Source: Pyrodictium occultum
GTDB lineage: Archaea; Thermoproteota; Thermoprotei_A; Sulfolobales; Pyrodictiaceae
Length of the DNA stretch: 32,000 bases
Direction: 5' to 3'
Assembly: GCF_001462395.1 (NCBI RefSeq)
Contig: NZ_LNTB01000002.1
Location: 78,836-110,835 of the forward strand
This document shows, in pieces, positions 6,785 to 30,098 of this stretch. The notes beneath the pieces were generated by a model. The model did no database searches, was not told where the DNA came from, and worked only from the letters and a program-made list of their open reading frames with translations. The translations under genes were made by a program, and so were the position numbers. The number at the start of each line of letters is the position of its first letter. Positions within the stretch are counted from its first letter, which is position 1.

Positions 6785-6795
6785 GTGACAATTTT

Positions 6796-8419: not shown

Positions 8420-8420
8420 C

Positions 8421-10178
8421 ATGTCGGTATTATCACTACTCCAAACACCACTAGTTCTATACACAGTTATCCTGACCATTACTTGGTTCTCCCTATTGGT
8501 GATTTCAGAGATCGCCCCCATAAAACCTAGTCTCAGCCCGAAAACTAGTAACAGACTAATGCATTCAATTTTTATAATTTACATTTTTATAACAATATTT
8601 TTCATCAAATTAAATTTAGTCTTGTATCCATATTTACATGCGATTATGATCGCACTCATTCTCTTACTCATACTAGGATCAATGCAGCATAATCCAAAGT
8701 CTTTGCTCTTGGTAGCCCTCTCTACAGCTATAACGCCCATAATAGTCATGACATCTACAAAGCACCCGCTTCCACTAGGTGATGACGCACGCTTCATTGG
8801 GTTCGCCCAAGCCATCTATAGAGATGGGAGATGGATACCGTTCAAATACCAGGAAAACACGTACTATCAGCCATTCCATCTAATACCTTTCCTCGAATAT
8901 ATTCTAGCAGTATTGCTAGGCCTCAACTTAAAAAACATTGAAGCATACTATCTCCTCCTAAAATTTAGCCTCTGGCTCACTTATATGATCTCCACTTACC
9001 TAGTTATAAAGAACTTAAGTAATGATTACTCTAAGTCATTAGTAGGTATACTGCTTCTATCTATAACTCCCCCAATCGCTCTAACCCAGGTAGTTCACCA
9101 AGCTTATGCGATAGTGCTTTTCCTGATAACAGCCTCAGTATTAGTGAAGGAAATAAGGGTTAGGCAGAGCTTAAACACACTGTTCCTAGTTATAATAGTA
9201 TTATGGATTGCTGGAATAATTGCTCATGCAACCTATACTGTGATGTTTCTAGCATTCATTTTACCCCTCTTCTTAATAGAAAGGGAGGGGGTTTCTAAGA
9301 AAAACATTGCATTGCTCTCAGCAACACTAGTATCAATTAGCATCATTTATTGGACATACCTATACATGCTTGACGAGATTGTACGATCAACAATAAGTGC
9401 TACGACAAGACTCATAGATTTACTAATAGGGAGAACACCGTTCTCCCCCTTCCATGGAACAGCAAAACCCTGGTACACGTCATCTACATCAACATTTTTC
9501 ATAGCCTGGGCCTTTGTTCCCTCCATAGTAGCCTCATACATACTCCTTCTCCTTTCAAAAATAATATTTAAACATTGGAAATACTCTTGGAGTTTCATGG
9601 AACTGTTAGGTTTTCTAGGATTAAGCGGAACAGCCGTAAACTATATCTTACGCGCTCTCTCCACTTTTGGCGGCAGGTACTTCTACTGGCTATACATACT
9701 AATGATCCCGCTGGCAACTATGGTAGTAAAGAAAGTATCAAGAAGCCCACTCAGTCTATTACCCTCCATAATCCTGATCTCCACGGCTGCGTTTTACGGC
9801 ATACAGGATCCAACAATGGCTGCTAACACTTATGGAAACTATATTGGCTGGGCAGACAGAACCAGCTGGCATATAGCCCTAGAGCTACAGCCATACCTTG
9901 GCCACAGAGCATCCAAATGGATCGATCCAAGACTGTCAGCACCACTAAGCTCCACAGCTCCGCTACCAGCAGGTAATGGGAGAATCAACTATCAGCAAAA
10001 GGTAGCAATAATAGGTGTTGATAAGGTAGGATTGAAAGGCGCCTCAAAGGACCCACGTAATGTAGACTGGTTTATAAGAAATTTCAACGTAGAACCACAT
10101 AACATCATGAATAAGCTAGACGAATTTAGTGTAATTCTAAACATCGACAAATATATCGGGATATGGGGAAACCCTTGA
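8421..10178 (+). CDS. Polytopic membrane protein, probable GT-C-type (ArnT/PMT-like) lipid-phosphate-sugar-dependent glycosyltransferase
   Basis: 585 aa with about 12 or more TM segments plus a ~120-aa C-terminal soluble domain. The first loop, GDDARFIGFAQAIYRDGRWIPFKYQENTYYQPF, resembles the D-[DE]-x-R-[YF]...G-x-W...Y-x-[KQ]-P signature of GT-C enzymes. This is recalled from memory and needs an HMM check; a Wzy-type polymerase is the alternative. Confidence 0.5.
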   Translation: MSVLSLLQTPLVLYTVILTITWFSLLVISEIAPIKPSLSPKTSNRLMHSIFIIYIFITIFFIKLNLVLYPYLHAIMIALILLLILGSMQHNPKSLLLVALSTAITPIIVMTSTKHPLPLGDDARFIGFAQAIYRDGRWIPFKYQENTYYQPFHLIPFLEYILAVLLGLNLKNIEAYYLLLKFSLWLTYMISTYLVIKNLSNDYSKSLVGILLLSITPPIALTQVVHQAYAIVLFLITASVLVKEIRVRQSLNTLFLVIIVLWIAGIIAHATYTVMFLAFILPLFLIEREGVSKKNIALLSATLVSISIIYWTYLYMLDEIVRSTISATTRLIDLLIGRTPFSPFHGTAKPWYTSSTSTFFIAWAFVPSIVASYILLLLSKIIFKHWKYSWSFMELLGFLGLSGTAVNYILRALSTFGGRYFYWLYILMIPLATMVVKKVSRSPLSLLPSIILISTAAFYGIQDPTMAANTYGNYIGWADRTSWHIALELQPYLGHRASKWIDPRLSAPLSSTAPLPAGNGRINYQQKVAIIGVDKVGLKGASKDPRNVDWFIRNFNVEPHNIMNKLDEFSVILNIDKYIGIWGNP

Positions 10179-11287
10179 AGATTCTTTTCCAAACAATAGG
10201 TGTTTTAATACAATATAATTGGGCTTTACCATACTATTTGAGTAGAGAGGACGTTAAAATTACTCTCATAACGAATATGTTTTCCTACTTTATGGGCGGG
10301 TATTATTACCACTTTAAAGCACTTAATAAGCTAACACCGCTTTTCACGGGCTTCGGGTTACCTTATACCCAGCAATACGACAAAAATATTACCAGTAACA
10401 TTCCAGTAGGTAGGCTTAGTAGAGGATCTGATGTAATCCATCTTAATGATTCAAAAAATCCTCTTACGAAAAGACTGTTAAATGTAGATAAACCTAAGCT
10501 TTTCTTCCTTCATGGATCGCTAGATATAATAAATCTAGCTAATCCGCCTAAAGAATTAGAGGAAATAAGATCTAAAGTTGATGCGTTCGTGGTTGCAAGC
10601 AATCATGCCGCCTATACTGTTAGGAGAGTGCTCGGGTTCACGCCGATAGTTATACATCACGGCATAGATACTATGATATTCAACCCCTTCAATATCACTA
10701 AGCAGAGAGCGAGAGAAAAACTGTCAATACCATTGAATAAAAGGGTTATATTATAGGTCGCCCGGATAAGCCCTGAGAAAAACCTCCAGATGGCCATCAA
10801 AGCCCTCCCACATGTGGTTAGTGAGGATAAAGATGTTCTACTGGTAGTTAAAGGGAGAACAGTAGATAGAAAGTATTTGGGTTTCATTCTCAAGCTGATT
10901 AAGAAGCTAAATGTGAGTAAATATGTAAGATTTGATTTCAAATGGAGCCCCAACGTGACTATGGTCTATTATTATTATCGGGCTGCAGATGTTTATGTAC
11001 ATACATCCTTGTCCGAAGCTTTTGGCTCCCTAACACTCTTAGAAGCTATGGCTTCAGGGACGCCAGTAGTAGCAAATAACGCTTCAAGCATCCCTGAAGC
11101 CGTTGGTAATGCTGGCCTACTAGTAAACTCAGAGGAAGAACTAGCTGAAAAGATTCTAGAAATACTGCATGATGATAGCCTAAGACGCAAACTATCTAGA
11201 GAAGGCTTTAGAAGAGTTATCGAAAATTTTTCGTTAAAAATAACTGCTAAGAAATATCTACAACTATATAGAAAATTGATGGGTTAA
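10163..11287 (+). pseudogene. GT4 glycosyltransferase split by a single in-frame TAG (10754..10756)
   Basis: ORFs 10163..10756 and 10790..11287 are in the same frame. The 11 codons after the TAG read VARISPEKNLQ with no stop, so the junction ...NKRVIL*VARISPEKNL... restores the canonical GT4 'vGR.s.eKn' motif. The C-terminal half has SLSEAFGSLTLLEAMASGTPVV. An alternative start at TTG 10175 overlaps the upstream TGA. Confidence 0.7.
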
Positions 11288-11305
11288 AAAGGTGTAAGCA
11301 AGGAC

Positions 11306-11818
11306 GTGGTGCTAGTTAGCATAGTAATATTAAACTACAATTGTAGTTTAATATTACATTGTGAAGAGTACTTGAACAGATTGCTTGGAAGTTGCTCTAT
11401 ATTAACTACTAGAGGACATGCTTTTGCTGTTCTTATACGGAGGGAGACAGTTATAGATTGGAAACCACGACATGATCTTTCAGCACTTGAGACCTTCAGC
11501 CTTGCACAACATATATTATCTAAGGGATACCTATGGATAGAGCTTTTTAAACCCTGTTGTATTCATCTAAAGGAGCTAAAATATGGAGCAGGTATAAGCC
11601 GTTATTTTAGACAAGGTCTTTGGGAAGGTGCAGGGGCTAGACTTGTAGGAATCAAGAAAAGACATATGCTTGAGGAAGTTGTTGCTAGATTATTAGGAGG
11701 GGTCTTAACCGCTTTAATTACTCATGATGTAAAACATTTAGCTAATAATACAGCTTTAAGACTAGGGCTACTTCTAGGTTATCTTGTACCTTATAAATTC
11801 AGAGTCTGGCGTAGATGA
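11306..11818 (+). pseudogene. GT2 glycosyltransferase remnant (apparent internal deletion of the catalytic core)
   Basis: 170 aa. The N-terminus VSIVILNYN is the usual GT2 opening strand, but within ~30 residues the sequence is already at a late-GT2-like segment (RGHAFAVLIRRETV) and a helical tail. No DxD region is present. GTG start. Confidence 0.4.
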
Positions 11819-11900
11819 AATGTTTTGTGTCACAGCGTTGTTCGGAAATAAAAATTCCAGTTTATTAAACTAAGACAGCGTATTTAGTGAAAAGTCCAAG

Positions 11901-13106
11901 TTGAAAATACTTATTATCTCAGAGCCCTTTTGGCCTAAGGGTAGCGGAGGTCCTCTAGCCACTTATCTTATAACTAGGATTCTAGCAAGGAATAGAGACT
12001 TTAATATAACTGTTGTTATTGGCACTGAGAAATCGGCTAAGATAAGAAACGTTGAATTCATTGTGGATCCTATGCTTAGAGCTTCAAATAAGGTAAAGTT
12101 GTTACTAAGACTTACTAATCCTGTGGTAAGGCATAAATATGAGAAGCTTATAAAAAAATTCGATATATTGTATATTCCATCATACTCCCCCTGTGGTTAT
12201 CCTCTAATACCTATTGCTAAGAGGCTTGGGAAGAAGGTGGTTGTTCACCTCCACGACTACCAGCCCTTCTCCTACAACTCCGTCATACCGGCAGGCCGCC
12301 ACGGTAGTGTTTTGAATGGTGTCAGCTACGAGGCCCGGTACGAGGTTTACGAGCATGGCAGCGTTGGGAGGGCTGTCCTGGGATCCCTGGCGACCCCTCT
12401 CATAGGTCTTTACAGGCTGTGGGTTAGACAGGCGGATGCAGTCGTATGCGTCTCAAGGAGGCAGGCGGAAATAGTGGCTGAGATAGCGCCAGAGCTTAGG
12501 GGCAGGATCAGGGTCGTATACAACCCCCTCCCAGACGTCCCCCCAACGGAGAAGAGGCTTGGAGACCCCGCCTTCCTATATCTAGGCGGTGACAGCTACA
12601 TTAAGGGGTTCCATGTTCTCCTGGGCGCTTCCCGGAAAATCCTGGAGCATTATCCCAATGTAGAATTCCTGCTAGCCGGGAGATTCAGGGATTCAAGCAG
12701 GCTCCTCGTCGAGAAGCTGAACAGAAGGTTTAATGAAGCATATAGGGTGCTAGGCTACCTGAAGCATGAAGATATTGTAAGGCTTCACGGAGAGAGCTAC
12801 GCCCTCCTCTTCCCATCAGTAGTCGAGGAGCCCTCGCCATACGCTGTCCTCGAATCCATGCTGGCCGGGACGATACCAATAGCTTCGAGGGTGGGCGGGG
12901 TCCCCGAGATAGTTGAGGGTACACCCGCCGAGAGAATGCTCTTCACGCCAGGCGATGCAGGCGAGCTAGTGGACCGTATCGAACACGTTTTATCCTTCTC
13001 CAAGGAGCAGCTAGTCGATATGGGGTTTAAGCTGAGGGAGTCTGTCACGAGGAAGTTTAATAACGAAAGAATTAAGCGAGAGCTGATGAAAGTGTTTACT
13101 ATATAA
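11901..13106 (+). CDS. GT4-family glycosyltransferase (compositionally chimeric)
   Basis: Starts MKILIISEPFWPKGSGGPLATY. Carries GGDSYIKGFHVLL and E-x7-E (EPSPYAVLE) plus AGTIPIASRVGGVPEIV. TTG start. GC changes from about 33% to 53-60% near 12235 inside the intact ORF. Confidence 0.75.
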   Translation: MKILIISEPFWPKGSGGPLATYLITRILARNRDFNITVVIGTEKSAKIRNVEFIVDPMLRASNKVKLLLRLTNPVVRHKYEKLIKKFDILYIPSYSPCGYPLIPIAKRLGKKVVVHLHDYQPFSYNSVIPAGRHGSVLNGVSYEARYEVYEHGSVGRAVLGSLATPLIGLYRLWVRQADAVVCVSRRQAEIVAEIAPELRGRIRVVYNPLPDVPPTEKRLGDPAFLYLGGDSYIKGFHVLLGASRKILEHYPNVEFLLAGRFRDSSRLLVEKLNRRFNEAYRVLGYLKHEDIVRLHGESYALLFPSVVEEPSPYAVLESMLAGTIPIASRVGGVPEIVEGTPAERMLFTPGDAGELVDRIEHVLSFSKEQLVDMGFKLRESVTRKFNNERIKRELMKVFTI

Positions 13107-13300
13107 ATGTGTGGGATAATGAGGCCGGCAGACCAGACTAATACCTATAATACTGACGGCAACTATACCTACGTTTTTCACAGCCCAGGGATCGAGCCGT
13201 GGGTTCCAGGCCTTCTGAAGGCGAGGCACTCTCTAGGCAGATAAACTTAGAGAAAGGTAAAACGCTAACAATGTACAATATTACGTTAATGAAAATACTC

Positions 13301-13315
13301 TTTAATATTTATAAG
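13301..13315 (+). promoter_or_regulatory. Candidate TATA box/promoter for the 13371 gene
   Basis: tttaatatttataag lies about 55-70 nt upstream of ATG 13371. GGTGA (13362..13366) lies 5 nt upstream of the ATG as a Shine-Dalgarno-like element. Confidence 0.35.
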
Positions 13316-13370
13316 AAGAGGGCGGGAAGCAAGCTTTACTTGATATCGTTTAAGGTTAAAGGGTGATAGT

Positions 13371-14321
13371 ATGAAAGTTGTGACGCTACCCGTTTTAAGC
13401 GTCGCAGTTTCTGGGGGCCGTGTATATGCTCTATTAAAGGAGTCAGATGGTAGGCTCTCCCTGGCTTCTTTCAACCGTGAACTGGAGGTTGAGGACAAGC
13501 TTGCAGCTCTAAAGGGTTCTAGAGGCTTTGTACTGGATGCATGGAGAGATTCCCTCCTGTTCTCAGTAGATAATAAGCTCTACGCCTTAAGGGGTGGTGA
13601 GGTTAAAAGTGTCCTTAGGGCTCACCTGCCGGTTAACATCTTCTGGCATGCAACTAGAGCGAATGGACACGTCTATGTCCAGGAGTATGGAGAGAGCCCT
13701 ACGGGAATATTTGAGCTGGATAGGGATTACGAGAGCTCTCGGCTATTGATCACTAATAGGGATCTCGATAAAGGCTCTAAGCACTTTCACAGCGTAGTGT
13801 ATGATCCGTTTAGAGGCTGGCTAGTAGCCACGCTCGGGGATGGGAATTTATTGAGAGTTGCTGTCTCAGCTAATGGCGGGGAGAACTGGCGCCCTCTCTA
13901 CAGGGGTCCCTGGCAGTTCGTCCCCATCGTTCCTTTGAAGGATACAATCGTGTTCGGTATGGATAGCGGGATTGCGAGGGGTGGTGTAGGGATATATTAT
14001 CCTAGCAAGAAGAGGTGGAGGTTCATATTTCTTAAATGGATTAATGAGAGAGTTAAGCTTGCCCAGATGAGTGATTTGAAGCTGCTAAGCAATGGTTTAT
14101 GGGTAGCTGCTCTAGGCACTCCTCAGGCGATAGTTGTCTCTAAAGATTTGAAAACATGGTATCCCCTATATGTTGAGGGGTTTGATGAGCATTTTAACCA
14201 CTATATGCAGGTGAGTGTGGGAGAGGACTTCATAGCGTGTTCAACAGGTAGAAGCCTTCTGGTGTTTAGGAAAGACGAGGTATATAATGCTTTGAATAAG
14301 AGCGAACCTGCAATGGCTTAA
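13371..14321 (+). CDS. Hypothetical protein, possible beta-propeller with degenerate Asp-box (BNR-like) motifs
   Basis: 316 aa, beta-rich by eye. SANGGENW and SKDLKTW resemble the S-x-D-x-G-x-T-W Asp-box. No clear signal peptide. Confidence 0.5.
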   Translation: MKVVTLPVLSVAVSGGRVYALLKESDGRLSLASFNRELEVEDKLAALKGSRGFVLDAWRDSLLFSVDNKLYALRGGEVKSVLRAHLPVNIFWHATRANGHVYVQEYGESPTGIFELDRDYESSRLLITNRDLDKGSKHFHSVVYDPFRGWLVATLGDGNLLRVAVSANGGENWRPLYRGPWQFVPIVPLKDTIVFGMDSGIARGGVGIYYPSKKRWRFIFLKWINERVKLAQMSDLKLLSNGLWVAALGTPQAIVVSKDLKTWYPLYVEGFDEHFNHYMQVSVGEDFIACSTGRSLLVFRKDEVYNALNKSEPAMA

Positions 14322-14343
14322 AGGCATAGTAAGGTTTAAGATG

Positions 14344-14376
14344 AGAGTTCGTCATAGCCATTATATGACGAACTTT
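14344..14376 (+). terminator. Stem-loop followed by a T-rich tract downstream of the 13371..14321 gene
   Basis: Perfect 11-bp arms agttcgtcata (14346..14356) and tatgacgaact (14364..14374) with a 7-nt loop; extendable by G-T and A-T pairs. It is followed by tttgtgttg and begins 23 nt after the stop codon. Confidence 0.35.
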
Positions 14377-14461
14377 GTGTTGAGCCATGGAATATAAGAA
14401 AATGCTATTAATAGCTGCTACGGCTACAGTTATTGGACTTAAGGAGCTTGATTCTAGGAGT

Positions 14462-14518
14462 ATTTTCTAAGCTGTCTGATCTTCTAACAAAGAATCGTCT
14501 CAAACGAGCTTAGAAAAT
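14462..14518. repeat. 12-bp inverted repeat (attttctaagct / agcttagaaaat) with a 33-nt spacer
   Basis: Read directly: 14462..14473 pairs with 14507..14518. It lies in the 413-nt spacer upstream of the P-loop gene. Confidence 0.6.
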
Positions 14519-14734
14519 TATACTTTAATGAAGCCCTAAGGAGGGGAAATGCCGAACTCAGAAAAAGATTCTAGAAAAACATATAATCTATCTACAAGAT
14601 TAGTGGATGCGTCGGAAGAAAAACACGGACCCATATTGATACGTTGTATTTGTTCTAAAAGGGCAAAAGATAGAGGAATCTTAGTGAGAGGGCTGATGTA
14701 GGCATATACCTCGCTAAAAAGGGGAAAGCTAGCC

Positions 14735-15376
14735 TTGCCGAGGAGGCATATAATTGTGTTTGTTGGCCATGTTGGGGCTGGCAAAACTACACAGGCAAAA
14801 TATTTAGAAGCATATTTAAAGAAAAGAGGTCAAAGATCAAAGTTTACTTATTTGAAAACATATTTTGTTTTTACAAATAACTTACTGCGAATATTTAGAA
14901 GAATGAATATTAGTAGAATAGGTCTCTATTTTATTCATCGGTTGCTGGTTGTACTGGACCTAGTAATTAATGTCTTTATTCTTCCTCTTTTAGCCTTATT
15001 TAGAGTTAGAATACCTTCTAAGTTTTACAAATACATTCTTATTGAGGAGTATTTGCCTGGAATTCTTGTGGATTATGTTCATGCGAAATTAATACTTAGA
15101 TTAAATAAGAAATTCTTAATGAGGGCTATGCATGTTTTACTCAGACTTCTCTACATCGACTCAACAACGATCATATTAGTGTGCAATGCTCAATCCCTGC
15201 CGTACCGCTGGAAGGCTAGAAATACTCCTCCAGAAGCACCCTCTTACCTCAAGGTGCAAGAGAAAGTATTTACCCTATGGAGTAAACACGTGGAAAACAC
15301 TTTTTACGTATCTACTGAAGGAAGAAGTGTCAAGGAAACGAATCGAGAAATAAGAAAGCTGTTAAATATTCCTTAG
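14735..15376 (+). CDS. P-loop NTPase, nucleotide/nucleoside-kinase-like (Tmk-like N-terminus) with a hydrophobic insertion
   Basis: IIVFVGHVGAGKTTQAKYLEAYLKKRG contains Walker A and resembles the thymidylate-kinase-type opening. A ~35-residue hydrophobic stretch follows (IGLYFIHRLLVVLDLVINVFILPLLALF). TTG start. Confidence 0.55.
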   Translation: MPRRHIIVFVGHVGAGKTTQAKYLEAYLKKRGQRSKFTYLKTYFVFTNNLLRIFRRMNISRIGLYFIHRLLVVLDLVINVFILPLLALFRVRIPSKFYKYILIEEYLPGILVDYVHAKLILRLNKKFLMRAMHVLLRLLYIDSTTIILVCNAQSLPYRWKARNTPPEAPSYLKVQEKVFTLWSKHVENTFYVSTEGRSVKETNREIRKLLNIP

Positions 15377-15401
15377 TTTAAAAATTGAGGTACTTAGGGA
15401 A

Positions 15402-16607
15402 ATGAAGCCTCTTATAATAGCACCAAATGATCTAAGGATACGTGAAGGCACGACTATAAGGATTACAGGGCTTATAAAGAGTATTGCCCCCAATATGGAG
15501 AAAATATATCTTGCCTCAGCGTTCATAAACAAAGAGTTATCCCAACTACATAATTTAGAGTGGGTTAAGATTAGATTCCTAAGAGCATTAACATTACTAT
15601 CCATAAATTATTCAAGCATTATGTCGAGGCATTTCTTTGATATTGGTTTAACACGTATCATGATAAATAAGGAAATACGTGACGCTGACGTAATTCATGC
15701 TCATTGGATTCTCACCTTACCCTTAGCGGTAGGTATTCATAAATATAATGGAGCCCCCATAATTGTAGACCTTCACGGGCTTTTCGAGCTCCAATCCCAA
15801 AGCCCATCCATTTCTCTTGCAGGCTGGCTCTTAGTTAACCTGTCTAGGATAATTGAGGTAATGCGCGTGAGAGATAAATACATAGAAGCCTTCACTGTTC
15901 CCTCGGAGCCCCTTAAGCAATATCTTATACGCAGGTATGGACTGCCAGGTGACAAGATATTTGTGGTTCCAGATGGTATAGACATTAATGATATCCCTAG
16001 TTATGATGAGGATCTCGCTAATCAAATGAGGAACATGCTTGGCATAAAAGATGAGCATGTGGTTGCCTATGTGGGAACAGTATCGTATTTCCATGGGTTT
16101 CACGATTTACTGAAGGCTTTCAAAATAGCTAAGCACCGCATAGAAAACATAAAACTGCTACTCATAGTTCCAAACAGAGTACAAGCACTTAATATAGCGG
16201 GCAGAACCGGCATAAGTGATCAAGACCTCATAGTTCTCGAAAATATTCCCCGGAGAAAAATATACTATTACCTCTACCTATCCGACGTTCTCGTAATACC
16301 CCACAGAGCCGGTACTCAGTTCGAGTTCCTACCCTCCAACAAGCTTCTCGACTATATTGCTTCAGGCAAGCCTATAGTAGGCTATGATCTGCCAAGCATC
16401 AGACATCTTCTATACAAGTATGAGCCGAAAATACTAGTTAAACCTAATGATCCAGAAGCCCTAGCCTCTGGAATAATAAATGCTCTTCAAATAAACAGAC
16501 GGGCACCATATAAGGTTATTAAAGCAGTCTTAAGTAAATATTCATGGAATAACGTAGGAAAGCAATTACTAAGTGTTTACAGGAGGGTTAAGGGAGGTAT
16601 TAGATAA
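15402..16607 (+). CDS. GT4-like (GT-B) glycosyltransferase
   Basis: 401 aa. Has the HAHWILTLPLAV / VDLHG N-domain pattern, VAYVGTVSYFHGFHDLLKAF and FLPSNKLLDYIASGKPIVG in the C-domain. TGAGGT lies upstream of the ATG. Confidence 0.65.
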   Translation: MKPLIIAPNDLRIREGTTIRITGLIKSIAPNMEKIYLASAFINKELSQLHNLEWVKIRFLRALTLLSINYSSIMSRHFFDIGLTRIMINKEIRDADVIHAHWILTLPLAVGIHKYNGAPIIVDLHGLFELQSQSPSISLAGWLLVNLSRIIEVMRVRDKYIEAFTVPSEPLKQYLIRRYGLPGDKIFVVPDGIDINDIPSYDEDLANQMRNMLGIKDEHVVAYVGTVSYFHGFHDLLKAFKIAKHRIENIKLLLIVPNRVQALNIAGRTGISDQDLIVLENIPRRKIYYYLYLSDVLVIPHRAGTQFEFLPSNKLLDYIASGKPIVGYDLPSIRHLLYKYEPKILVKPNDPEALASGIINALQINRRAPYKVIKAVLSKYSWNNVGKQLLSVYRRVKGGIR

Positions 16608-18100
16608 ATGATCTCGGTGATCGTAGTTTACAATGATGTAAGGATACTAAACGAGTGGTTATTAGAGAGTTTGAAGAATCAAAGTGCAGATTATGAGCTT
16701 ATAGCACTAGATAACAGGAAAGGCGATTTTCCTTCAGCTGCTAATGCCTACAACTATGGAGGCTTAAGGGCACGTGGCGACTATCTAATGTTTGTTCATC
16801 AAGACGTAAGATTATTGGGGAATACTTGGATTGAGGAGGCGGAGAGAATTCTACGGAACTTGCCTAAGCTAGGTGCTGCAGGTGTGGCTGGAAAAAGATG
16901 TGATATTCGTGGAGTTATAACTAATGCTATTCATGGTGTTCCACCGCGACCGGCTGGTCAGATAAGAATATCAAAACCTGTGAAGGTTCAAACGCTAGAT
17001 CCCCTGCTTATAATTGTGCCGAGAAAAGTTTTCCAGAGATTAAAGTATGATGAACATACATGCAACGGATGGCATCTTTATTCCATTCCGAGGATTACTG
17101 CCTCACCTTACAAAGGGAGGGGTTCAACTGTTATGTGCTACCACTTCCCGTTTATCATCGGTCAACAGGTGTAAAGCCGAAGAAAAGAAAACTCATTGAC
17201 TACGGCCCTTATCCTGATGAATACTATGCGATACTTAAAAAAGTGTTAAGGAAGCATAGGCTCCATTACCGTAAGATATGCACGACTTGTGGGGACTACT
17301 ATACATTTATACCTCTTTTTATCCAATTGACTCTGCCGAGAGTAATGAAGACTATCTTCTTGAGACTGTTTGGATCAAGCTTACGGTTATTGATTAGGAG
17401 CTGGCTGCTCAGGAATTTCGTTACAGCCTACTTTACGGCCAAGTATAGGAGGCTGTTGAGGGAGGGTGTAAGCTTAGATGACCTAATAGACTTTGCCTTT
17501 GAATTTGTTGGCCTACCACTAGTAAAGTCTCACCAATTGTCGGATATCGACCTTATCAACGCGTTAACCATAAGGCCTGCCCAAGTAAAGGAGGAAATCC
17601 GAGAATTCCTGAGCATACTGCAGAAAATAAGACCTAAAATCATTCTGGAGATAGGCACTGAGCGAGGGGGGACACTATTCCTGCTCAGCCAGGTAGCGGA
17701 TGAAGATGCCACACTCATATCCATAGACTTACCATGGGATAACCGAGCATCCAAAGGCCATAGCTTCGGCTTCAGCTATCCACCATGGAGAGAGAAACTT
17801 TACAGGTCATTTGCTAGGGGCAATCAGAAAATATATCTCCTAAGAGGGGATTCACACTCGCAAGCGACCCTAATGGAGGTCAAAAGAATCCTCAGAGGGA
17901 GAAAACTGGACGTCTTATTCATAGATGGGGATCATACTTATGAGGGTGTTAAGAAGGATTTTGAAATGTATTCTCCACTAGTTAAAAAAGGAGGTATAAT
18001 AGCTTTCCACGACATTGTCCCACACCTGCCTGAAACCGGTTGTGAGGTAAACAAATTCTGGAACGAGATTAAGAATAACTATAAATATCTCTTGAGATAG
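16608..18100 (+). pseudogene. GT2-like glycosyltransferase fused to a CmcI/TylF-like class I methyltransferase, frameshifted by a 5-bp tandem duplication
   Basis: ORF 16608..17174 (ISVIVVYND..., FVHQDV...) and ORF 17060..18100 (EDYCLTLQREGFNCYVLPLPVYHRSTG..., ILEIGTERGGTLFLL, FIDGDHTYEGVKKDF, GGIIAFHD) overlap in different frames. attccattcc at 17080..17089 is (ATTCC)x2. Deleting one copy gives a continuous ...GWHLYSEDYCLTLQ... ORF. Confidence 0.65.
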
Positions 18101-18139
18101 TTTGAGGATTGGAACCAGAAGTGGGCGGAGATAGGTGTC

Positions 18140-18826
18140 TTGTGTCATGTATCTGTACTAGAGTTCTTTATTGAATACGCGAGAGCAGAGGAGTTTAAGG
18201 GTAAAAAGGTATTAGAGGTTGGAAGTAGATATGTTAATGGAAGTGTGCGTCCGTTGATTGAGAAATATTTCCAACCTAAAGAATACATTGGAGTGGATAT
18301 AGAGCCCGGTAAGTTTGTAGACCTGGTGTTGCCTGCTGAAAGGCTCCTAGAATACTTTGGCCCGGAATCTTTTGACGTGGTGATTAGTACGGAGTTGCTT
18401 GAGCACGTCGTTGATTGGAGGCTTGTAGTAAATAACATGAAGGGTGTGCTGAAACGTGGGGGATACATTTATATCACGACTAGATCTAGAAGTTTCCCTT
18501 ATCATGCCTATCCTTACGATTTCTGGAGATATGAAATTGAGGACATGAAAAGGATCTTCGCTGATTTCAACATTATAAAATTAGAAAAGGATCATCAGGC
18601 TCCTGGGGTCTTTCTTAAGGCCAAGAAGCCAGAGAACTATGTACCAGCTGACTTGTCGAACATAGCGCTTTACTCTATAATATTAGGGAGGAGAACAAGA
18701 GACATTCCAGATATTGGCGATGCTCCACTTATTAGGAGGCTTATCCTTAGACTATTAAGTTCTAAGGCCAAGTGGCTACTGCCAGGAGGCTTATTACGTC
18801 TCATAGAAAAGAAAATCGTGGTTTAA
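18140..18826 (+). CDS. Class I SAM-dependent methyltransferase (Methyltransf_11-like)
   Basis: Carries KKVLEVGSRYVNGS, FDVVISTELLEHVVDW and LKRGGYIYITT. TTG start assigned by the ORF finder. The frame is continuous with the upstream ORF except for TAG 18098..18100. Confidence 0.7.
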   Translation: MCHVSVLEFFIEYARAEEFKGKKVLEVGSRYVNGSVRPLIEKYFQPKEYIGVDIEPGKFVDLVLPAERLLEYFGPESFDVVISTELLEHVVDWRLVVNNMKGVLKRGGYIYITTRSRSFPYHAYPYDFWRYEIEDMKRIFADFNIIKLEKDHQAPGVFLKAKKPENYVPADLSNIALYSIILGRRTRDIPDIGDAPLIRRLILRLLSSKAKWLLPGGLLRLIEKKIVV

Positions 18827-18988
18827 GTACTTAGTTCTTTATCAAAGAATCGTTGTTATATTAGGCTTATCCACAATATAAAATTTAATTTATTCAAGCT
18901 TCACAATTTATTTTATCTACCAGCAAGCTATCAAAACGCTAAAATAGGAGAGTAGAATATTATCTAAGAACGTAAGTTAAAGATTAGT

Positions 18989-19653
18989 TTGGGTGCGAAG
19001 GAATTGAAGACAATAATTGTTCTGGGGATGGGTAGGTCTGGAACCTCGATGGTAGCTGGGATTCTGCACATACTCGGGGTTAACATGGGCGAGAGGCTCC
19101 TCGGGGCCCACTGGTCCAACCCTCTAGGCCACTTCGAGGACCTTGACTTCGTCGAGTTGAACGAGGAGATCCTGAGGGCGGCCGGTGGGAGCTGGGACAA
19201 CCCCCCGGCCCGGGAGGCGATCCTGGCGGTCGCCCCACGCTTCTACGATAGGATAAGGCCGCTCGCGGAGGAGGAGAGGAGGAGGCACGAGGTGTGGGGC
19301 TGGAAGGATCCCAGGACCTCCCTCACCGTGGAGCTGTACCTCCCCCACCTCGAGAACCCCTACTTCATAGTGTGCCACCGCGACTGGGAGGCTATAGCGC
19401 GCTCCCTCAAGAGGAGGGATGGGATGAGCATAGAGAGGGGGTCTGGCTGGCCAGGGTGTGCTATGAGAGGGTTGAGGAGTTCTTCAGGGAGCACCCGGGC
19501 CTCAGAAGACTGGACGTTCGCTACGAGGACTTCATAGCCGGCCCGGAGGCTCACGTCAGGAGGATAGCCTCGTCCATAGGCCTGGAGCCCGGTGAGGAGA
19601 GGATCAGGAGGGCCACTGCCTTCGTGCTCTCCCCGGGGAGAGGGAGAGGCTAG
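18989..19653 (+). pseudogene. Sulfotransferase-family protein, frameshifted at a G5 run (19437..19441)
   Basis: Frame 2 gives IIVLGMGRSGTSM (5-prime-PSB-like P-loop), WGWKDPRTS (3-prime-PB-like) and CHRDWEAIARSLKRRDGMSIERG. Frame 1 continues VWLARVCYERVEEFFREHPGLRRLDVRYEDFIAGPEAHVRRIASSIGL. One extra G in the run joins them. TTG start. Confidence 0.65.
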
Positions 19654-23632: not shown

Positions 23633-23878
23633 TTGGCCTCCGGCGGCTCTGGCGGCAGGAGGGGGAGGTACACTACTGTCTCTATACCGGTCTCCCTCTA
23701 CGAGCGGATCCAGAGGCTTATCGAGGGGACGGGGTTCACCAGTGTGTCCCAGTTTGTGACGTATGTGCTGCGGGAGGTTGTGGCGGAGATGGAGGAGGAG
23801 AGGCTGAGGAGCGGGGAGGTTGGTGAGGAGGAGAAGAAGGCTATTCTCGAGAGGCTTCGGAGGCTTGGCTACCTGTAG
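23633..23878 (+). CDS. Small ribbon-helix-helix (CopG-like) protein with an acidic linker and a conserved C-terminal LGYL tail
   Basis: RYTTVSIPVSLYERIQRLIEGTGFTSVSQFVTYVLREVV shows a beta-strand/helix/helix pattern. Then EMEEERLRSGEVGEEEKKAILERLRRLGYL. TTG is the only in-frame start. Paralog of 26464..26672. Confidence 0.6.
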   Translation: MASGGSGGRRGRYTTVSIPVSLYERIQRLIEGTGFTSVSQFVTYVLREVVAEMEEERLRSGEVGEEEKKAILERLRRLGYL

Positions 23879-23886
23879 CCCTCCTA

Positions 23887-25065
23887 TTGGCGGGGTGGTG
23901 TGGTGTGGTCTCGCGTCCTCATGGGGGTAGGCTTGTGGACAGGGTTGCCCGGGGTGGGTCGAGGGAGAGGCTGCTGCGGGAGGCTCTGGAGATGCCCAGG
24001 CTGGAGGTTGGCGGGGGCTTGGCTGCGGATGCCGCTAATATCGCGCATGGGGTTTATAGCCCGTTGGATGGCTTCATGGTGCAGGAGGATTACCTCTCGG
24101 TGCTGCATGATATGAGGCTTAGCAGTGATGTGCCGTGGACTATCCCGATTGTGCTTGATGCTTCTCCGGGCGAGCTGGCGGGGGTTAGGGAGGGTGATGA
24201 GGTTGCCCTCTTCTACCGTGGTGAGCCGCTGGCGGTGCTCCGGGTTGAGGAGATCTATGGCTGGGACCGGAGGGAGCATGCCCTCAACGTGTTTAAGACC
24301 ACTGACCCGGGGCACCCGGGCGTTGCCAGGCTTATGAGGAGGAAGGAGCTGTTCGTGGGCGGGCCTATCCTCCTCCTCCGGGACCCGCCGGAGCCTTTTG
24401 AGAGGGTGAGGCTCTGGCCCCGGGAGACGCGTGTGCTCTTCGAGGCCAAGGGCTGGAGGACTATAGCGGCTTTCCAGACGCGCAACGTGCCCCATCTAGG
24501 CCACGAGCATGTGCAGAAGGCCGCGCTCACCTTCGCCGACGGGCTGTTTGTGAGCCCTCTGGTGGGCTGGAAGAAGCCCGGCGACTACAGGGACGAGGTG
24601 ATAGTTGAGGCCTACAGGGTGTTGCTGGAGAACTACTTCCCCAGGGAGAGTGTTGTATTCAGCGTGCTCAGGATGGAGATGAGGTACGCGGGGCCGCGGG
24701 AGGCGGTGCACCACGCGATAGTGAGGAAGAACTTCGGCGCAACCCACTTCATAGTGGGGAGGGACCACGCGGGGGTCGGGAGCTACTACGGCCCCTACGA
24801 GGCATGGGAGCTGTTCAGGGAGTTCCCGGACCTAGGGATAACCCCCCTCTTCGTCAGGGAGGCGTTCTACTGCAGAAAGTGCGGCCAGGTGGTCAACGAG
24901 AAGATATGCCCCCACGGCGAGGAGTACAGGGTGAGGATCAGCGGCACCAGGCTGCGGGAGATGCTCCGGAGGGGCGAGAGGCCGCCGGAGTACATGATGA
25001 GGCCGGAGGTGGCGGAGGTGGTCCTAAGGCACCCGGACCCCTTCGTGCCCGGGGACGAGAGGTGA
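23887..25065 (+). CDS. sat: Sulfate adenylyltransferase (ATP sulfurylase)
   Basis: Carries RPHGGRLVDR, FQTRNVPHLGHEHV, VGRDHAGVG and a C-terminal Cys/His cluster CRKCGQVVNEKICPHG. The start is TTG 23887 or GTG 23905. Confidence 0.9.
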   Translation: MAGWCGVVSRPHGGRLVDRVARGGSRERLLREALEMPRLEVGGGLAADAANIAHGVYSPLDGFMVQEDYLSVLHDMRLSSDVPWTIPIVLDASPGELAGVREGDEVALFYRGEPLAVLRVEEIYGWDRREHALNVFKTTDPGHPGVARLMRRKELFVGGPILLLRDPPEPFERVRLWPRETRVLFEAKGWRTIAAFQTRNVPHLGHEHVQKAALTFADGLFVSPLVGWKKPGDYRDEVIVEAYRVLLENYFPRESVVFSVLRMEMRYAGPREAVHHAIVRKNFGATHFIVGRDHAGVGSYYGPYEAWELFREFPDLGITPLFVREAFYCRKCGQVVNEKICPHGEEYRVRISGTRLREMLRRGERPPEYMMRPEVAEVVLRHPDPFVPGDER

Positions 25066-26441
25066 GGGATGCGGGAGGGGTGCCGCGCCGCCTATTCCTC
25101 CTGGGGCTCGACTCGATGCCCCCGAGGGTCCTCTACGAGGGGATGGACGGGGGCGGGTTCAGCTACCTCCGCCAGCTGCTGGGGGATGCGAGGCGCTACC
25201 GGCTGAGGAGCTGCCACCCGCCGATAACGGTGCCGGCCTGGATGGCCATGTTCACGGGGAGGACGCCGGGCGAGCTGGGGGTCTACGGGTTCAGGCACCG
25301 GAGGCCGGGCGAGTACGGCTACTACATAGTCGACGGCACGAGGATACGACACCCGGCCCTATGGGACCTGGCGGGCCGCAGGGGGCTCCGGGCGGGCGTG
25401 TACGGCGTGCCCCCCACCTACCCGCCCCGCCCGGTCCACGGGTTCCTGGTCACCGACTTCACCACCCCGGGGCCGGAGAAGCCCTACACCTTCCCGCCCT
25501 GGCTCCGCCGCGAGCTGGAGCAGGCCGCCGGGGGGCCTCCAGTGTTCGACATAGTGTACCGGAGCGGCGAGAAGGACAGGGTGGCCAGGGACCTCTACGC
25601 GATGCTGGAGAGCCACCAGCGGCAGGTGGAGTACCTGGCGCTGAGGAAGCGCTGGGACCTATTCATATATGTGGAGATAGCCGTCGACAGGGCGCACCAC
25701 GCCTTCTGGAGGTACTTCGACCCCGAGCACCCCCGGCACGAGGAGCACCCGGTGTACAGCAGGGTGATCCCCGAGCTCTACAGGAGGATAGACAGGTGGT
25801 TCGAGAGGCTCCACCGGAGGCTCCCGCGGGACACGGTGGTGGTTGTGGCGAGCGACCACGGCATCAAGGCTATGAGGGGCGCGTTCGCGGTCAACCAGTG
25901 GCTGGCCGAGCAGGGCTACCTCCGGCTGCGCGCCAGCCCCGGGGAGCTGAAGCCCGGCACGGAGCTCTCCGAGGACCTGGTGGACTGGGAGCACACGGTC
26001 GCCTGGGCCTGGGGAGGCTACTACAGCCGCGTGTTCATCAACCTACGGGGCAGGGAGAAGAGGGGCGCGGTGGAGCCCAAGTACTACGAGGAGACGGTCG
26101 AGCAGCTCCGGAGGGACCTCGAGAGGATAAGGGGGCCGGGCGGCGAGCACTGGAGGAACACTGCCCTGCGCCCCGAGGAGGTCTACCCGGAGGTCAACGG
26201 GGACCCGCCGGACCTCATGCTCTACCTGGACGACCTCAACTGGAGGCCGGCGGGCACCCTGGGCTGGCCCAGCCCCTACCTGGAGGAGAACGACCGCGGC
26301 CCCGACGACGCCGTCCACGACTGGATCGGGGTGTTCGCTGTCTACGACCCCGAGGGCACTGTGAGCCCCGGCGAGGCGGGGGTGATTGATATACACGGGG
26401 TGCGCGGCCTGCTGGAAGAGATAATATTCTCCAGGCGGTGA
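25062..26441 (+). CDS. Alkaline-phosphatase-superfamily enzyme, type I phosphodiesterase/nucleotide pyrophosphatase (NPP)-like
   Basis: Carries LLGLDSMPP (metal Asp), HPPITVPAWMAMFTGRTPGELGVYG (Thr nucleophile motif), VVVASDHG and a late His motif. GTG 25062 overlaps the sat TGA (GTGA); GTG 25080 is the alternative start. The ORF-track start at 24804 is a spurious extension into sat. Confidence 0.7.
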   Translation: MRDAGGVPRRLFLLGLDSMPPRVLYEGMDGGGFSYLRQLLGDARRYRLRSCHPPITVPAWMAMFTGRTPGELGVYGFRHRRPGEYGYYIVDGTRIRHPALWDLAGRRGLRAGVYGVPPTYPPRPVHGFLVTDFTTPGPEKPYTFPPWLRRELEQAAGGPPVFDIVYRSGEKDRVARDLYAMLESHQRQVEYLALRKRWDLFIYVEIAVDRAHHAFWRYFDPEHPRHEEHPVYSRVIPELYRRIDRWFERLHRRLPRDTVVVVASDHGIKAMRGAFAVNQWLAEQGYLRLRASPGELKPGTELSEDLVDWEHTVAWAWGGYYSRVFINLRGREKRGAVEPKYYEETVEQLRRDLERIRGPGGEHWRNTALRPEEVYPEVNGDPPDLMLYLDDLNWRPAGTLGWPSPYLEENDRGPDDAVHDWIGVFAVYDPEGTVSPGEAGVIDIHGVRGLLEEIIFSRR

Positions 26442-26463: not shown

Positions 26464-26672
26464 ATGGGGGACAAGGTCTCCATAGAGATAAGCAGGGAGC
26501 TGTACGAGAAGGCCCGGAGGTTCATAGAGGAGCAGGGGGCTTCAGCAGCGTGGAGGAGCTGGTGGAGTTCCTGCTCCGCGAGGCCCTCGAGACCGGCGGG
26601 GAGGAGGAGGGGATGAGCAGGGAGGACGAGGAGCGGGTCAGGGAGAGGCTCCGCTCCCTGGGCTACCTCTAG
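26464..26672 (+). pseudogene. Second RHH (CopG-like) paralog, frameshifted at a G5 run (26535..26539); not in the ORF track
   Basis: ATG 26464 gives MGDKVSIEISRELYEKARRFIEEQG, then an out-of-frame stop at 26614..26616. One extra G gives ...EEQGGFSSVEELVEFLLREALETGGEEEGMSREDEERVRERLRSLGYL* ending at TAG 26670..26672, colinear with the 23633 paralog. GGAGGGGTGGAG lies upstream of the ATG. Confidence 0.55.
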
Positions 26673-27291
26673 CCCCCTCTCCCAGGGCCTCCAGTATCCT
26701 CGCGGCCAGCCTCTCCGCGTTCTCCTCCACAGTATTCCTCACCGTGTCGAGCACCAGGTCGGGGTTCTCGGGGGGCTCGTAGGGGTCGCTCACGCCGGTG
26801 AAGTGGCTTATCTCCCCGCGGAGGGCGCGGCGGTAGAGCCCCTTAGGGTCCCTCCTGATGCACTCCTCGAGGGGAGCGTGGACGTAGACCTCGAGGAAGG
26901 GGGCCTCCTCCTCGACTATCCTGCGGACCTCCCTCCTCACGTCGCGGTAGGGGGAGACGAAGCTGCAGACCACTATCACCCCATTCCGGGCCAGGAGCCG
27001 GGCTATCCAGGCGACGCGGAGGAGGTGGCGCCGCCTCTCCTCCCGCGTGTAGCCCGCGTCCGGGTTGATGGTCTTCCTCACCCAGTCCCCGTCCAGGACC
27101 TCGACACGGTAGCCCAGGGAGCGTAGCCTCTTAGCGGTAGCCAGGGCTATCGTGGTCTTGCCGCTCGCGGGGAGCCCGGTGAGCCACGCGACAACCCCGC
27201 GCTCCAGGCAGCGCATCCCCAGCCACCCTCCCAGCCCCGCGGGCCCCACGAGCTGGATAAGCCTCGCGCCCACAGCAAGGAGCCAGGCCAC
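26638..27291 (-). CDS. cysC: Adenylylsulfate (APS) kinase
   Basis: Carries VVAWLTGLPASGKTTIA (P-loop), LDGDWVRKTI and CSFVSPY. The likely true start is the internal ATG at 27216 (MRCLERGVVAWLTG). Confidence 0.9.
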   Translation of the reverse strand: MAWLLAVGARLIQLVGPAGLGGWLGMRCLERGVVAWLTGLPASGKTTIALATAKRLRSLGYRVEVLDGDWVRKTINPDAGYTREERRRHLLRVAWIARLLARNGVIVVCSFVSPYRDVRREVRRIVEEEAPFLEVYVHAPLEECIRRDPKGLYRRALRGEISHFTGVSDPYEPPENPDLVLDTVRNTVEENAERLAARILEALGEGARGSPGSGASP

Positions 27292-27447: not shown

Positions 27448-28464
27448 ATGGCGTGGGTGATGTATAGCCCTGCATCCCCGGGGGGCTGTGGGTGTGGCCT
27501 GGGCTTGGCCGTGCTAGTCACGGGCGGCGCTGGGTTCGTCGGGAGGCATGTAGTGGGGCTGCTGCTCGAGAGGGGCTACGAGGCTGTTGTGGTGGACAAC
27601 CTCTACTCCCCGGGCTCGGCTGGGGCCGCCATGCGCCTCCGCTGGCTGGGTGCGCGGGTTGTCTGGGGTGACGTCTCCCGCTGGGAGACCCTGCTCCACG
27701 CCGTGGGGGAGGCTGGGCTGGGGCGGGGCGACGTCGAGGCCGTGGTCCACCTGGCCGCGGTGGTGGGCGTCGAGGAGGCATGGGGGAGGCCGCGGCTGGC
27801 GCTGGAGGTGAACGTAGAGGGTACGCTGAACGTGCTGGAGCTGGCCCGGCTCCTCGACGCGGAGAGGATTGTCTACGCCAGCAGCGCGGCGGTCTACGGG
27901 GAGCCCAGGTACCTCCCCATCGACGAGAACCATCCCCTGGAGCCGGTCAGCCTCTACGGCTGGTCGAAGCTCGCCGGGGAGACCCTGCTCTGGCAGTACC
28001 AGCGGGCCTACGGGCTCAGGCCGGCCGCGCTCCGCCTGTTCAACGTCTACGGGCCCGGGATGAGGCCGGGCCCCTACGCGGGCGTGGTGTACAGGTTCAT
28101 AGAGGCGCTTCTCCGCGGGGAGCCGCCGGTGGTCTACGGCGACGGCGAGCAGACCCGGGACCTCGTCTACGTGGGGGACGTGGCTGAGGCCATGCTCCGG
28201 GCGGTAGAGGCGGGCTACACGGGCCCAGCCAACATAGGCACCGGGAGGGAGACCAGCATAAACCAGCTCTACAGGATGCTCTGCAGCCTCCTGGGCGGGG
28301 GCTGCCCGGAGCCGCTCCACAAGCCCCCGAGGCCGGGGGATGTTAGGAGGAGCGTAGCCTCAATCAGGCTGGCGGAGGAGAAGCTCGGCTGGAAGCCCAG
28401 GACAGGCCTGGAGCAAGGCCTAAGGGAGACGATCAAGTACTATAGGGGGCGCGTAGAGCCGTAG
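27448..28464 (+). CDS. NAD-dependent nucleotide-sugar epimerase/dehydratase (extended SDR, GalE-like)
   Basis: Carries VLVTGGAGFVGRHVV, ASSAAVYGEP and LYGWSKLAGE (YxxxK). The likely start is TTG 27505 or GTG 27511, just before the Rossmann motif. Confidence 0.8.
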   Translation: MAWVMYSPASPGGCGCGLGLAVLVTGGAGFVGRHVVGLLLERGYEAVVVDNLYSPGSAGAAMRLRWLGARVVWGDVSRWETLLHAVGEAGLGRGDVEAVVHLAAVVGVEEAWGRPRLALEVNVEGTLNVLELARLLDAERIVYASSAAVYGEPRYLPIDENHPLEPVSLYGWSKLAGETLLWQYQRAYGLRPAALRLFNVYGPGMRPGPYAGVVYRFIEALLRGEPPVVYGDGEQTRDLVYVGDVAEAMLRAVEAGYTGPANIGTGRETSINQLYRMLCSLLGGGCPEPLHKPPRPGDVRRSVASIRLAEEKLGWKPRTGLEQGLRETIKYYRGRVEP

Positions 28465-28609: not shown

Positions 28610-30098
28610 CTATGGCTTCAGGAGCTGTAGCCTCCGTAGCCTCCTGAATAGGCTTGTGTAGTTGGCCTTTCCGGCCGCGTTGAGCCCTGTGGCGAAGGCG
28701 TCTGCCAGAGGCCTGCCATCCGTGTCGTGGGGTAGTGGGAGCCCGAGGTACGCTAGTATGGTGGGTGTGATGTCGTAGATGGAGGCTCTCCTCTCCTCGC
28801 CGGCGGGCGGGGCGGATACCTCATCCCCCGCCAGGGCTACTAGCGCGTGCTGCTCGTGGACGCCCATATACCCCTTGTGGAGCGGCTCTGCATGTATGTT
28901 CGCGTCGAAGAACACGTCGGGCCCCGGTATGAGGAGTAGGCTGGGCGCCCTCTCCACGTAGGGCCCCCAGAAGACCTCGTCCCGCGAGGCTATGCCCCGT
29001 ATCTGGCTGATGCCCTGCAGTGCCTGGCGCACGGCGCCGCAGTAGCCCCTCCTCACGTACACCCCCAGGTTGCCCGTCTCGAGCATGAAGGCCCTGCTTG
29101 TGGAGTAGTTCACCTCCACCTGTAGAGGGATCAGTGGCCTTATCCTCTTCAGGAGGCTTCTCGGTATAAGCCTCCTCGCCAGCCGGAGGAGGGGGCGTAT
29201 TCTGGAGCCCCGGGCGCTGCTGGGGGAGCTGCCGCTGCCCGGCTCCGTGGCGCTGTGCTCTGCCCCCCCGGGCCACGTGGTACCGGTAGTCTATCAGGCC
29301 CCTGTCTGCGAGGATGCTGTTTACACCCACGAGCACGCGTGCGACGCGGAAGCCGTGATCGCTCGCGAGTATAAGCAGGCTGCACTCGCCGCTAGCTTTA
29401 CGGACAAACCTGTCTATCATCGATGCGATCCTGTAGACTCTATGCATTTGCCTGCCCTCGACTATGTCCGGGATCCTGTGCATGAGCCAGTCGAGCTCGC
29501 TGAACACTATGACGAAGAGGCTGTAGTCCTCCTTCTCGAGCAGGTCATAGTAGATGTTTAGCCTCTTCTCGAGAAACTCCTCAACCATCTTCACATAGGA
29601 GTCTGTGTCGGCGGCCCTGCTCCACTGGTGGGGAGGCTCGACCAGGTACTCGGAGTACCTGGCCTCATAGCCTCTAGGGTGGATGAACTGCCGGGGGGAG
29701 GACCAGTCGCTGACGAGTACAAGGTTCCGGGCCGCGAGGAGCTGGGATACGGGGTAGGTTAGGGGCACGTTTATGACGACGCTCCTAAGCCCCTTCATGG
29801 CGGCTATCTCGAACACGCGCGGGTACATGACGTCGCGGGACGATGCCACGCGGATACTGAAGCCCTCTTCGCCCTGCTCGACCACGTAGAAGCCGAATAT
29901 GCCGTGCTTCCCGGGGTTCACCCCGGTGAATATGCTCGTCCAGGCGGGGGGCGTGTAGGGAGGGATCGAGGGAGCGGGGGAGGCGAAGCCCTTGCCGGCT
30001 ATGCTGGATAGCGCGTTGAGCGGGATACTCTCCAGCATGGTCTTAAGGTTGCCTGGCCCGACGCCGTCGAGGCCTATTAGGCATACACGTTTAGCCAA
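28610..30098 (-). pseudogene. Second NPP-like alkaline-phosphatase-superfamily paralog, frameshifted at a G7 run on the coding strand (C7 at 29263..29269)
   Basis: The N-part (TTG 30098) has LIGLDGVGP, IPPYTPPAWTSIFTGVNPGKHGIFG and LLILASDHG up to ...IDYRYHVARGG. The C-part frame is open from just upstream of the run: AEHSATEPGSGSSPSSARGSRIRPLLRLARRLIPRSLLKRIRPLIPLQVEVNYSTSRAFMLE...GVHEQHA...DITPTILAYLGLPLPHDTDGRPL. Removing one G joins them. Past the run, the ORF-track 425-aa product is Arg/Gly/Pro-rich junk. Confidence 0.65.

Follow-up and report, generated by a model that had tools for sequence, protein, structure and literature searches.

The gene at 25062..26441 on the forward strand of the window (the whole 32,000-nucleotide stretch of Pyrodictium occultum DNA analyzed here) encodes the single-copy, slowly evolving core enzyme of a cassette with the gene order RHH-sat-(DHH)-NPP-cysC. 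Our best explanation of its role, held tentatively and with a little less than even confidence, is that it performs the donor-side sulfuryl-transfer step of a glycan sulfation carried out by enzymes of the alkaline phosphatase (AlkP) fold; the published assignment of its orthologue as an inorganic pyrophosphatase (PPase) is a close rival. Taken by itself, the gene is ordinary, a further copy from a published cassette whose orthologous enzyme is characterized, and what our analysis adds is a set of co-occurrence counts, the exchange of AlkP-fold genes with a canonical sulfotransferase in one genomic slot, and the case of the closed genome G183. The donor chemistry is of importance since archaeal AlkP-fold sulfotransferases have no defined donor route, and most genomes with the cassette make PAPS yet show no canonical sulfotransferase. 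If the PPase activity of the orthologue is a side reaction, the family offers a direct test of surface-glycan sulfation in archaea and many bacteria, and Thermococcus is a host in which it could be approached genetically.

The core gene and its active site

The first-pass annotation had described an NPP-like open frame at these coordinates, and both the frame and the motifs GLDS, PPITVPAW, and SDHG are present. It had also proposed translational coupling to sat through a GTG at 25062 that overlaps the sat TGA. The overlap exists, but this GTG is one possible start among others, and the coupling is possible rather than shown, since the database places the start at GTG 25080, the 10 close homologues inspected start at the same residue, and relatives vary in the spacing to sat, some with a gap of 20 nt and others with an entire DHH gene in between. 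An ATG at 25069 lies 3 bases after a strong archaeal Shine-Dalgarno-like GAGGTGA. It sits one base out of frame, immediately ahead of a G run, and translation could in fact begin there if this run has been miscalled.

The gene is one of two PF01663 genes in the P. occultum genome (1.62 Mb, 99.8% complete), and its nearest named relative, from Pyrodictium delaneyi, shows 80% identity. The AlphaFold model of the enzyme (pLDDT 95) has an AlkP fold of the NPP/PhnA type, which matches Xac NPP (7mw8), ENPP4-7, and PhnA (1ei6) with Z scores of 26-28 and an rmsd of 3.3-3.7 over 330-358 residues at only 12-18% identity. Counted from GTG 25080, residues D11, T50, D259, H260, D203, H207, and H413 show a conservation of at least 99% across 239 homologues and make up the two-metal pattern of the superfamily (Asp, Thr, Asp-His; Asp-x3-His, His), with Thr as the nucleophile; the metal ligands D203/H207 and H413 are invariant and lie beyond the motifs named in the first-pass annotation. 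The fold and the two-metal, Thr-nucleophile site are shared with the NPP/PhnA branch, while the Asn found after HGI in NPP and PhnA is replaced. This phosphoryl-oxygen-binding Asn, found about 21 residues past the nucleophile in classical NPP phosphodiesterases, is absent from the core enzyme, and a profile alignment places Phe71, present in all core homologues, at the Asn of Xac NPP and PhnA. The exchange shows an alteration of active-site chemistry throughout the family, and it does not decide among the functional readings. No signal peptide and no membrane or hydrophobic span was found in the protein. We conclude that the gene is real and that its product, which belongs to the NPP branch (PF01663), is a cytoplasmic enzyme with two metals and a Thr nucleophile.

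The formylglycine sulfatase (S1) motif C/S-x-P-x-R is absent from the enzyme, whose nucleophile motif is TVPAW, and the P. occultum genome has zero matches to PF00884. The model, being an AlkP fold, lacks the P-loop fold with a 5'-PSB motif of PAPS-dependent sulfotransferases. Neither of the PAP phosphatase folds (CysQ FIG or DHH) was found in the protein, which matches PF01663 only; the PF00459 and PF01368 matches in the genome lie elsewhere. A PDB search with the single core sequence found nothing, and a search with the core profile returned only NPP, PhnA, and sulfatases.

The cassette and its published orthologue

The core gene encodes the local copy of an enzyme from a published archaeal cassette, RHH-sat-(DHH)-NPP-cysC-(TauE), which ranges from Thermoprotei to Thermococci, Asgard archaea, and several bacterial phyla. 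In the window, it lies beside RHH, sat, and cysC. On one side are an RHH/CopG protein with an acidic linker and a C-terminal LxxLGY tail (23633..23878, +) and the ATP sulfurylase gene sat (23887..25065, +; PRK04149, 525 bits, above the cut-off); on the other are a second RHH protein with the same tail (26464..26672, +), frameshifted at a G run (26535-26539) in this assembly, and the convergent APS kinase gene cysC (26638..27216, -), the sole copy in the genome. Over about 430 residues, the core enzyme is 44% identical to TON_1705 (ACJ17195.1) of Thermococcus onnurineus NA1 and 46% identical to PYCH_17550, with identical catalytic residues, and a quick tree of 30 rows places it in one clade with TON_1705 (SH-aLRT 100) and the paralogues apart.

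TON_1705 was identified by gene order as the sole gene between DHH and cysC. In the part of PMC4463584 that deals with this cluster, TON_1704-1707 are given as APS kinase, pyrophosphatase, PAP phosphatase, and ATP sulfurylase, and the pyrophosphatase is credited to Lee et al. (2009, J Bacteriol 191:3415), as cited there and in PMC9653972. The same five-gene cluster occurs in Pyrococcus yayanosii and others, with PYCH_17550 as the counterpart of the core gene (PMC8268124). Since TON_1705 is an orthologue from the same clade and the same cassette, the pairing of sat with an NPP-type gene has a characterized member, and the earlier statement that no such example was known is wrong, going by the cluster descriptions in PMC4463584 and PMC8268124. 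Databases name TON_1705 "protein involved in mitomycin biosynthesis" (P0368 from T. onnurineus, P0395 from P. abyssi), which hides its link to the 2009 paper from name searches. Literature searches for COG3379 or the LGY motif found nothing relevant, and the ESM Atlas queried with TON_1705 gave only uninformative PF01663 clusters.

In contrast to the cassettes of TON_1705 and PYCH_17550, that of P. occultum has neither the DHH pApase nor TauE, its cysC is convergent, and it has two tailed RHH genes. PAP hydrolysis has been shown for the DHH enzyme of the cassette (TON_1706, PYCH_17540; PMC8268124), which is often found beside the core gene, and the suggestion in the first-pass annotation that the core enzyme removes PAP is therefore poorly supported. 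A genome search that it had proposed revealed a family I PPase, three other DHH proteins, and one IMPase/FBPase, but no recognizable DHH pApase of the cassette type, so another enzyme must clear PAP in P. occultum. This would suit a core enzyme acting as the PAP 3'-phosphatase of the cassette, a role that we nevertheless consider highly improbable given the coexistence of the two genes in many cassettes and the other DHH and IMPase/FBPase proteins at hand. Assimilatory reduction was rejected as a PAPS sink in this organism: its four PF01507 (PAPS-reductase-family) proteins (G000:C1 4648-5166, 6424-6945, 89108-89638, and 1327775-1328293) score far below the CysH cut-offs on the matched domain and have "hypothetical protein" models as their top scores.

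Pyrophosphate removal and donor-side transfer as possible roles

Gene neighborhoods and genome co-occurrence strongly support the link of the core family to sulfate activation that had been proposed; the family follows cysC but not sat alone. Among 202 good Thermoprotei genomes, 68 have both the core gene and cysC, 7 have only cysC, 2 have only the core gene, and 125 have neither, so that the core gene is present in 68 of the 75 with cysC. The Thermococcaceae with an intact cysC have it in 55 of 55 cases, and it was found in none of the 23 genomes (three families) with Sat but no CysC. These genomes are kin and not independent, and Fisher tests, which overstate the significance, were not relied on. 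The core gene is also retained with DHH and cysC in cassettes without sat (L134, L063, and L068); in the first of these, from A. sulfaticallidus, an insertion element occupies the usual sat position. Of 38 loci with enough flank, 22 have sat, the usual neighbor, adjoining the core gene, and 12, from three phyla, have neither sat nor cysC nearby; a tail-bearing AlkP-fold gene lies at most 10 kb away in 8 of these 12. Automatic "sulf" labels in this locus survey were noisy and were used only where the nucleophile motif or the tail was visible. The co-occurrence with cysC could come from the cassette being inherited as one block, since the DHH gene for a by-product enzyme was also kept in 32 of the 32 Thermococcaceae tested; among Thermoprotei with the core gene, however, DHH was found in only 46 of 70, P. 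occultum not being one of them.

As published for TON_1705, the core enzyme would be a dedicated pyrophosphatase that pulls the unfavorable ATP sulfurylase reaction, and the cassette would then encode two scavengers, the core enzyme for PPi and DHH for PAP. We hold this joint claim to be a genuine possibility, well short of even. It draws on the orthology, on the kinetics of TON_1705 in Table 1 of PMC9653972 (Km 18.8 uM, kcat 2.1/s), on the repetition of the assignment in the cluster description of PMC4463584 and, as speculation, in PMC8268124, on the report that PPi removal limits ATP sulfurylase in vitro (PMC10322725), and on the usual position of the core gene next to sat. The guess at PPi removal in the first-pass annotation matches this published activity, hence it is not new and has already been put to an assay, but the genome comparisons make it doubtful as the main role. 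The same table lists a kcat/Km of 1.1e5 for TON_1705, compared to a kcat of 3e4/s and a kcat/Km of 2.7e7 for the family I enzyme Ton1914 of the same strain, which puts TON_1705 about 240-fold below the housekeeping PPase of its own cell. The core gene is kept in cassettes without sat and was not found in the Sat-only genomes, within Thermoprotei it surpasses the DHH scavenger in both retention and conservation, and it has many invariant aromatic residues that would be needless for PPi alone. The PPase of Escherichia coli is heat-stable and alkaline-optimal, and trace carry-over could thus mimic the TON_1705 rate.

The dependence on cysC would also suit a sulfohydrolase of PAPS or APS, which would limit or edit the pool of activated sulfate while the tailed RHH proteins serve as a feedback regulator. 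The nearest structures have the NPP fold, and eukaryotic NPPs cleave PAPS. It is hard to justify a futile enzyme that is co-transcribed with sat and retained in nearly every cassette, and such a function gives no account of why the core gene stays with AlkP-fold partners where sat and cysC are away, so we regard it as distinctly unlikely.

PF13469 sulfotransferases were scarce (12 of 351 and 14 of 80 genomes), as judged with an insensitive profile that barely detects the copy in the window, a P-loop (PAPS-type) sulfotransferase-like gene at 18989..19653 (+) with a weak match and a frameshift near a G run (19437-19441). Of the 57 Thermococcaceae that have the core gene, 47 also have paralogue-type or sulfatase-like AlkP genes, compared to 0 of the 23 without it. 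The AlkP genes inspected encode a Thr nucleophile, no formylglycine motif, and mostly a basic C-terminal helix. Behind the TauE-flippase, T. onnurineus has a P-loop sulfotransferase, and in P. yayanosii, Methanotorris, and two more Thermococcus genomes, an AlkP-fold gene takes this slot. G183 encodes Sat and CysC, and a P-loop sulfotransferase gene adjoins its RHH and sat; PF01663 genes are missing from this genome, and the tail is decayed, its second Leu being lost. In the congener G181, by contrast, the core gene is present along with a pair of intact tails and a sulfatase-like neighbor. In Halobacterium salinarum, the AlkP-fold proteins Agl30/Agl31, encoded in an N-glycosylation cluster, are genetically needed for sugar sulfation (PMC11980604), as is Agl7 in Haloferax volcanii (PMC3892788). 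Likened by their published description only, Agl30/31 parallel the paralogue and the sulfatase-like neighbors more than the core enzyme, and they differ in their structural likeness to sulfatases and in having no defined donor.

We favor the donor-side step because the core gene follows cysC and stays with AlkP-fold enzymes when sat is absent, because these enzymes take the slot of a canonical sulfotransferase, and because the tail is carried by RHH proteins, some CysC, and some AlkP enzymes. The scarcity of canonical sulfotransferases, the constant Tyr of the RHH tails together with the lack of a tail on the close core homologues, the decayed tail in the genome without PF01663, the existence of AlkP-fold sulfotransferases (PMC11980604), the low efficiency of TON_1705 relative to Ton1914 in the tabulated values, and the family I PPase of P. 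occultum itself point the same way. Against the donor-side step stand the only assay result given for the family in the citing papers, which is PPi hydrolysis, and the closest solved folds, which are phospho-hydrolases, together with the possible block inheritance, the frequency of sat as a neighbor, the likeness of the tail to a CysC helix, the tails in two MAGs where the core gene was not found (G056 and G034), and the insensitivity of PF13469.

Sat and CysC, whose genes are present, make PAPS by standard chemistry. The two-metal-activated Thr50 would attack the terminal group of this phospho-anhydride to give PAP and a Thr-O-sulfate; PPi is the simplest anhydride analogue, and cleavage of this smaller substrate would follow the same chemistry. 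The sulfuryl group would pass to a carrier or partner, for which the invariant Tyr of the LxxLGY tail is the simplest choice. By analogy with Agl30/Agl31, the group would then reach the variable AlkP-fold enzymes with a Thr nucleophile, the paralogue among them, that would sulfate a lipid-linked surface glycan. A full tyrosine relay, in which the core enzyme loads PAPS sulfate onto the LxxLGY Tyr and AlkP-fold transferases move it to surface glycans, with the tail acting in trans on RHH proteins or in cis on CysC and AlkP-fold transferases, is speculative and on balance unlikely; if true, it would be a widespread route of glycan sulfation without a P-loop sulfotransferase. Carrier-based group relays are known in the sulfate shuttle Cpz8/Cpz4 and the tyrosine carrier DltX, which resemble the proposed relay in their two-step transfer via an aryl or tyrosine intermediate and differ from it in their folds and donors.

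The LxxLGY tail, the paralogue, and the surrounding genes

Both RHH genes flanking sat and the core gene end in an acidic linker and LxxLGY, and the tail profile scored no other P. occultum protein. When homologues were gathered with only the RHH part as query, all 63 ended in the tail, always with Tyr, whereas the tail was on 0 of the 120 closest homologues of the core enzyme. In bacteria, the tail is also appended to CysC and AlkP-fold enzymes, and the AlkP enzymes in the loci sampled are tailed where no RHH was found and untailed where RHH is present. The native last helix of CysC is similar to the tail, and in Thermococcus this helix is picked up by the RHH-tail profile. The tail may have arisen by duplication of this helix. 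A role in docking or regulation, and not as a carrier, is equally open in view of this resemblance and of the incomplete MAGs G056 and G034, where the tails are intact and the core gene was not found. A predicted complex of the core enzyme, the RHH tail, and two Zn gave a score of 0.00, which is evidence neither way, and the ESM Atlas had no usable match to the tail. Some bacterial CysC carry the motif twice in tandem; this tandem and the scoring helix of Thermococcus CysC were noted at the loci L198:14074-14628 and L089:10813-12000. Tailed RHH units also occur in tandem repeats or behind a second RHH and an unknown middle domain (P0397, P0398, P0399, P0416, P0436, P0514, and P0460), and one record of this set has the RHH fused behind CysC, possibly by read-through.

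The paralogue that had been noted at 28610..30098 (-) is indeed the second PF01663 gene, but it is not one open frame and shifts at a run of seven C (29263-29269). It is about 27% identical to the core enzyme, falls outside the TON_1705 clade in the quick tree, and belongs to a sister clade that evolves fast; it has a basic insert and a basic C-terminal helix. We infer that this candidate non-canonical enzyme is an acceptor-side glycan sulfotransferase. The first-pass annotation had offered a sulfatase or a transferase acting on the glycan as an alternative; a glycan-sulfation transferase fits the genomic data best, most clearly for the paralogue. Three frameshifts, in the sulfotransferase, the second RHH gene, and the paralogue, fall within 10 kb, and they are probably homopolymer sequencing errors since all are at G or C runs and another assembly (P0141) reads through the break in the paralogue. 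A pseudogene reading of the paralogue was judged unlikely because of the same read-through, and apparent pseudogenes in this P. occultum assembly need caution.

A GalE-like NDP-sugar epimerase/dehydratase gene (27448..28464, +) lies between cysC and the paralogue. Positions 6000-19000 form a low-GC island (mostly 36-47%, compared to 62-72% outside) that stops just before the sulfotransferase gene and has glycosyltransferase-, methyltransferase-, and membrane-protein-like genes; it is probably a horizontally acquired glycan module. Inside it are a 316-aa protein with no Pfam match (13371-14321) and a 213-aa P-loop protein with weak matches only (14735-15376). A short (~310 aa) AlkP-like family with a DACR motif, which barely scores with Pfam, occurs in glycan clusters near the cassette (L137:10249-11193, L141:11800-12747, and L198:6006-6935) and is a candidate for a further sulfotransferase type.
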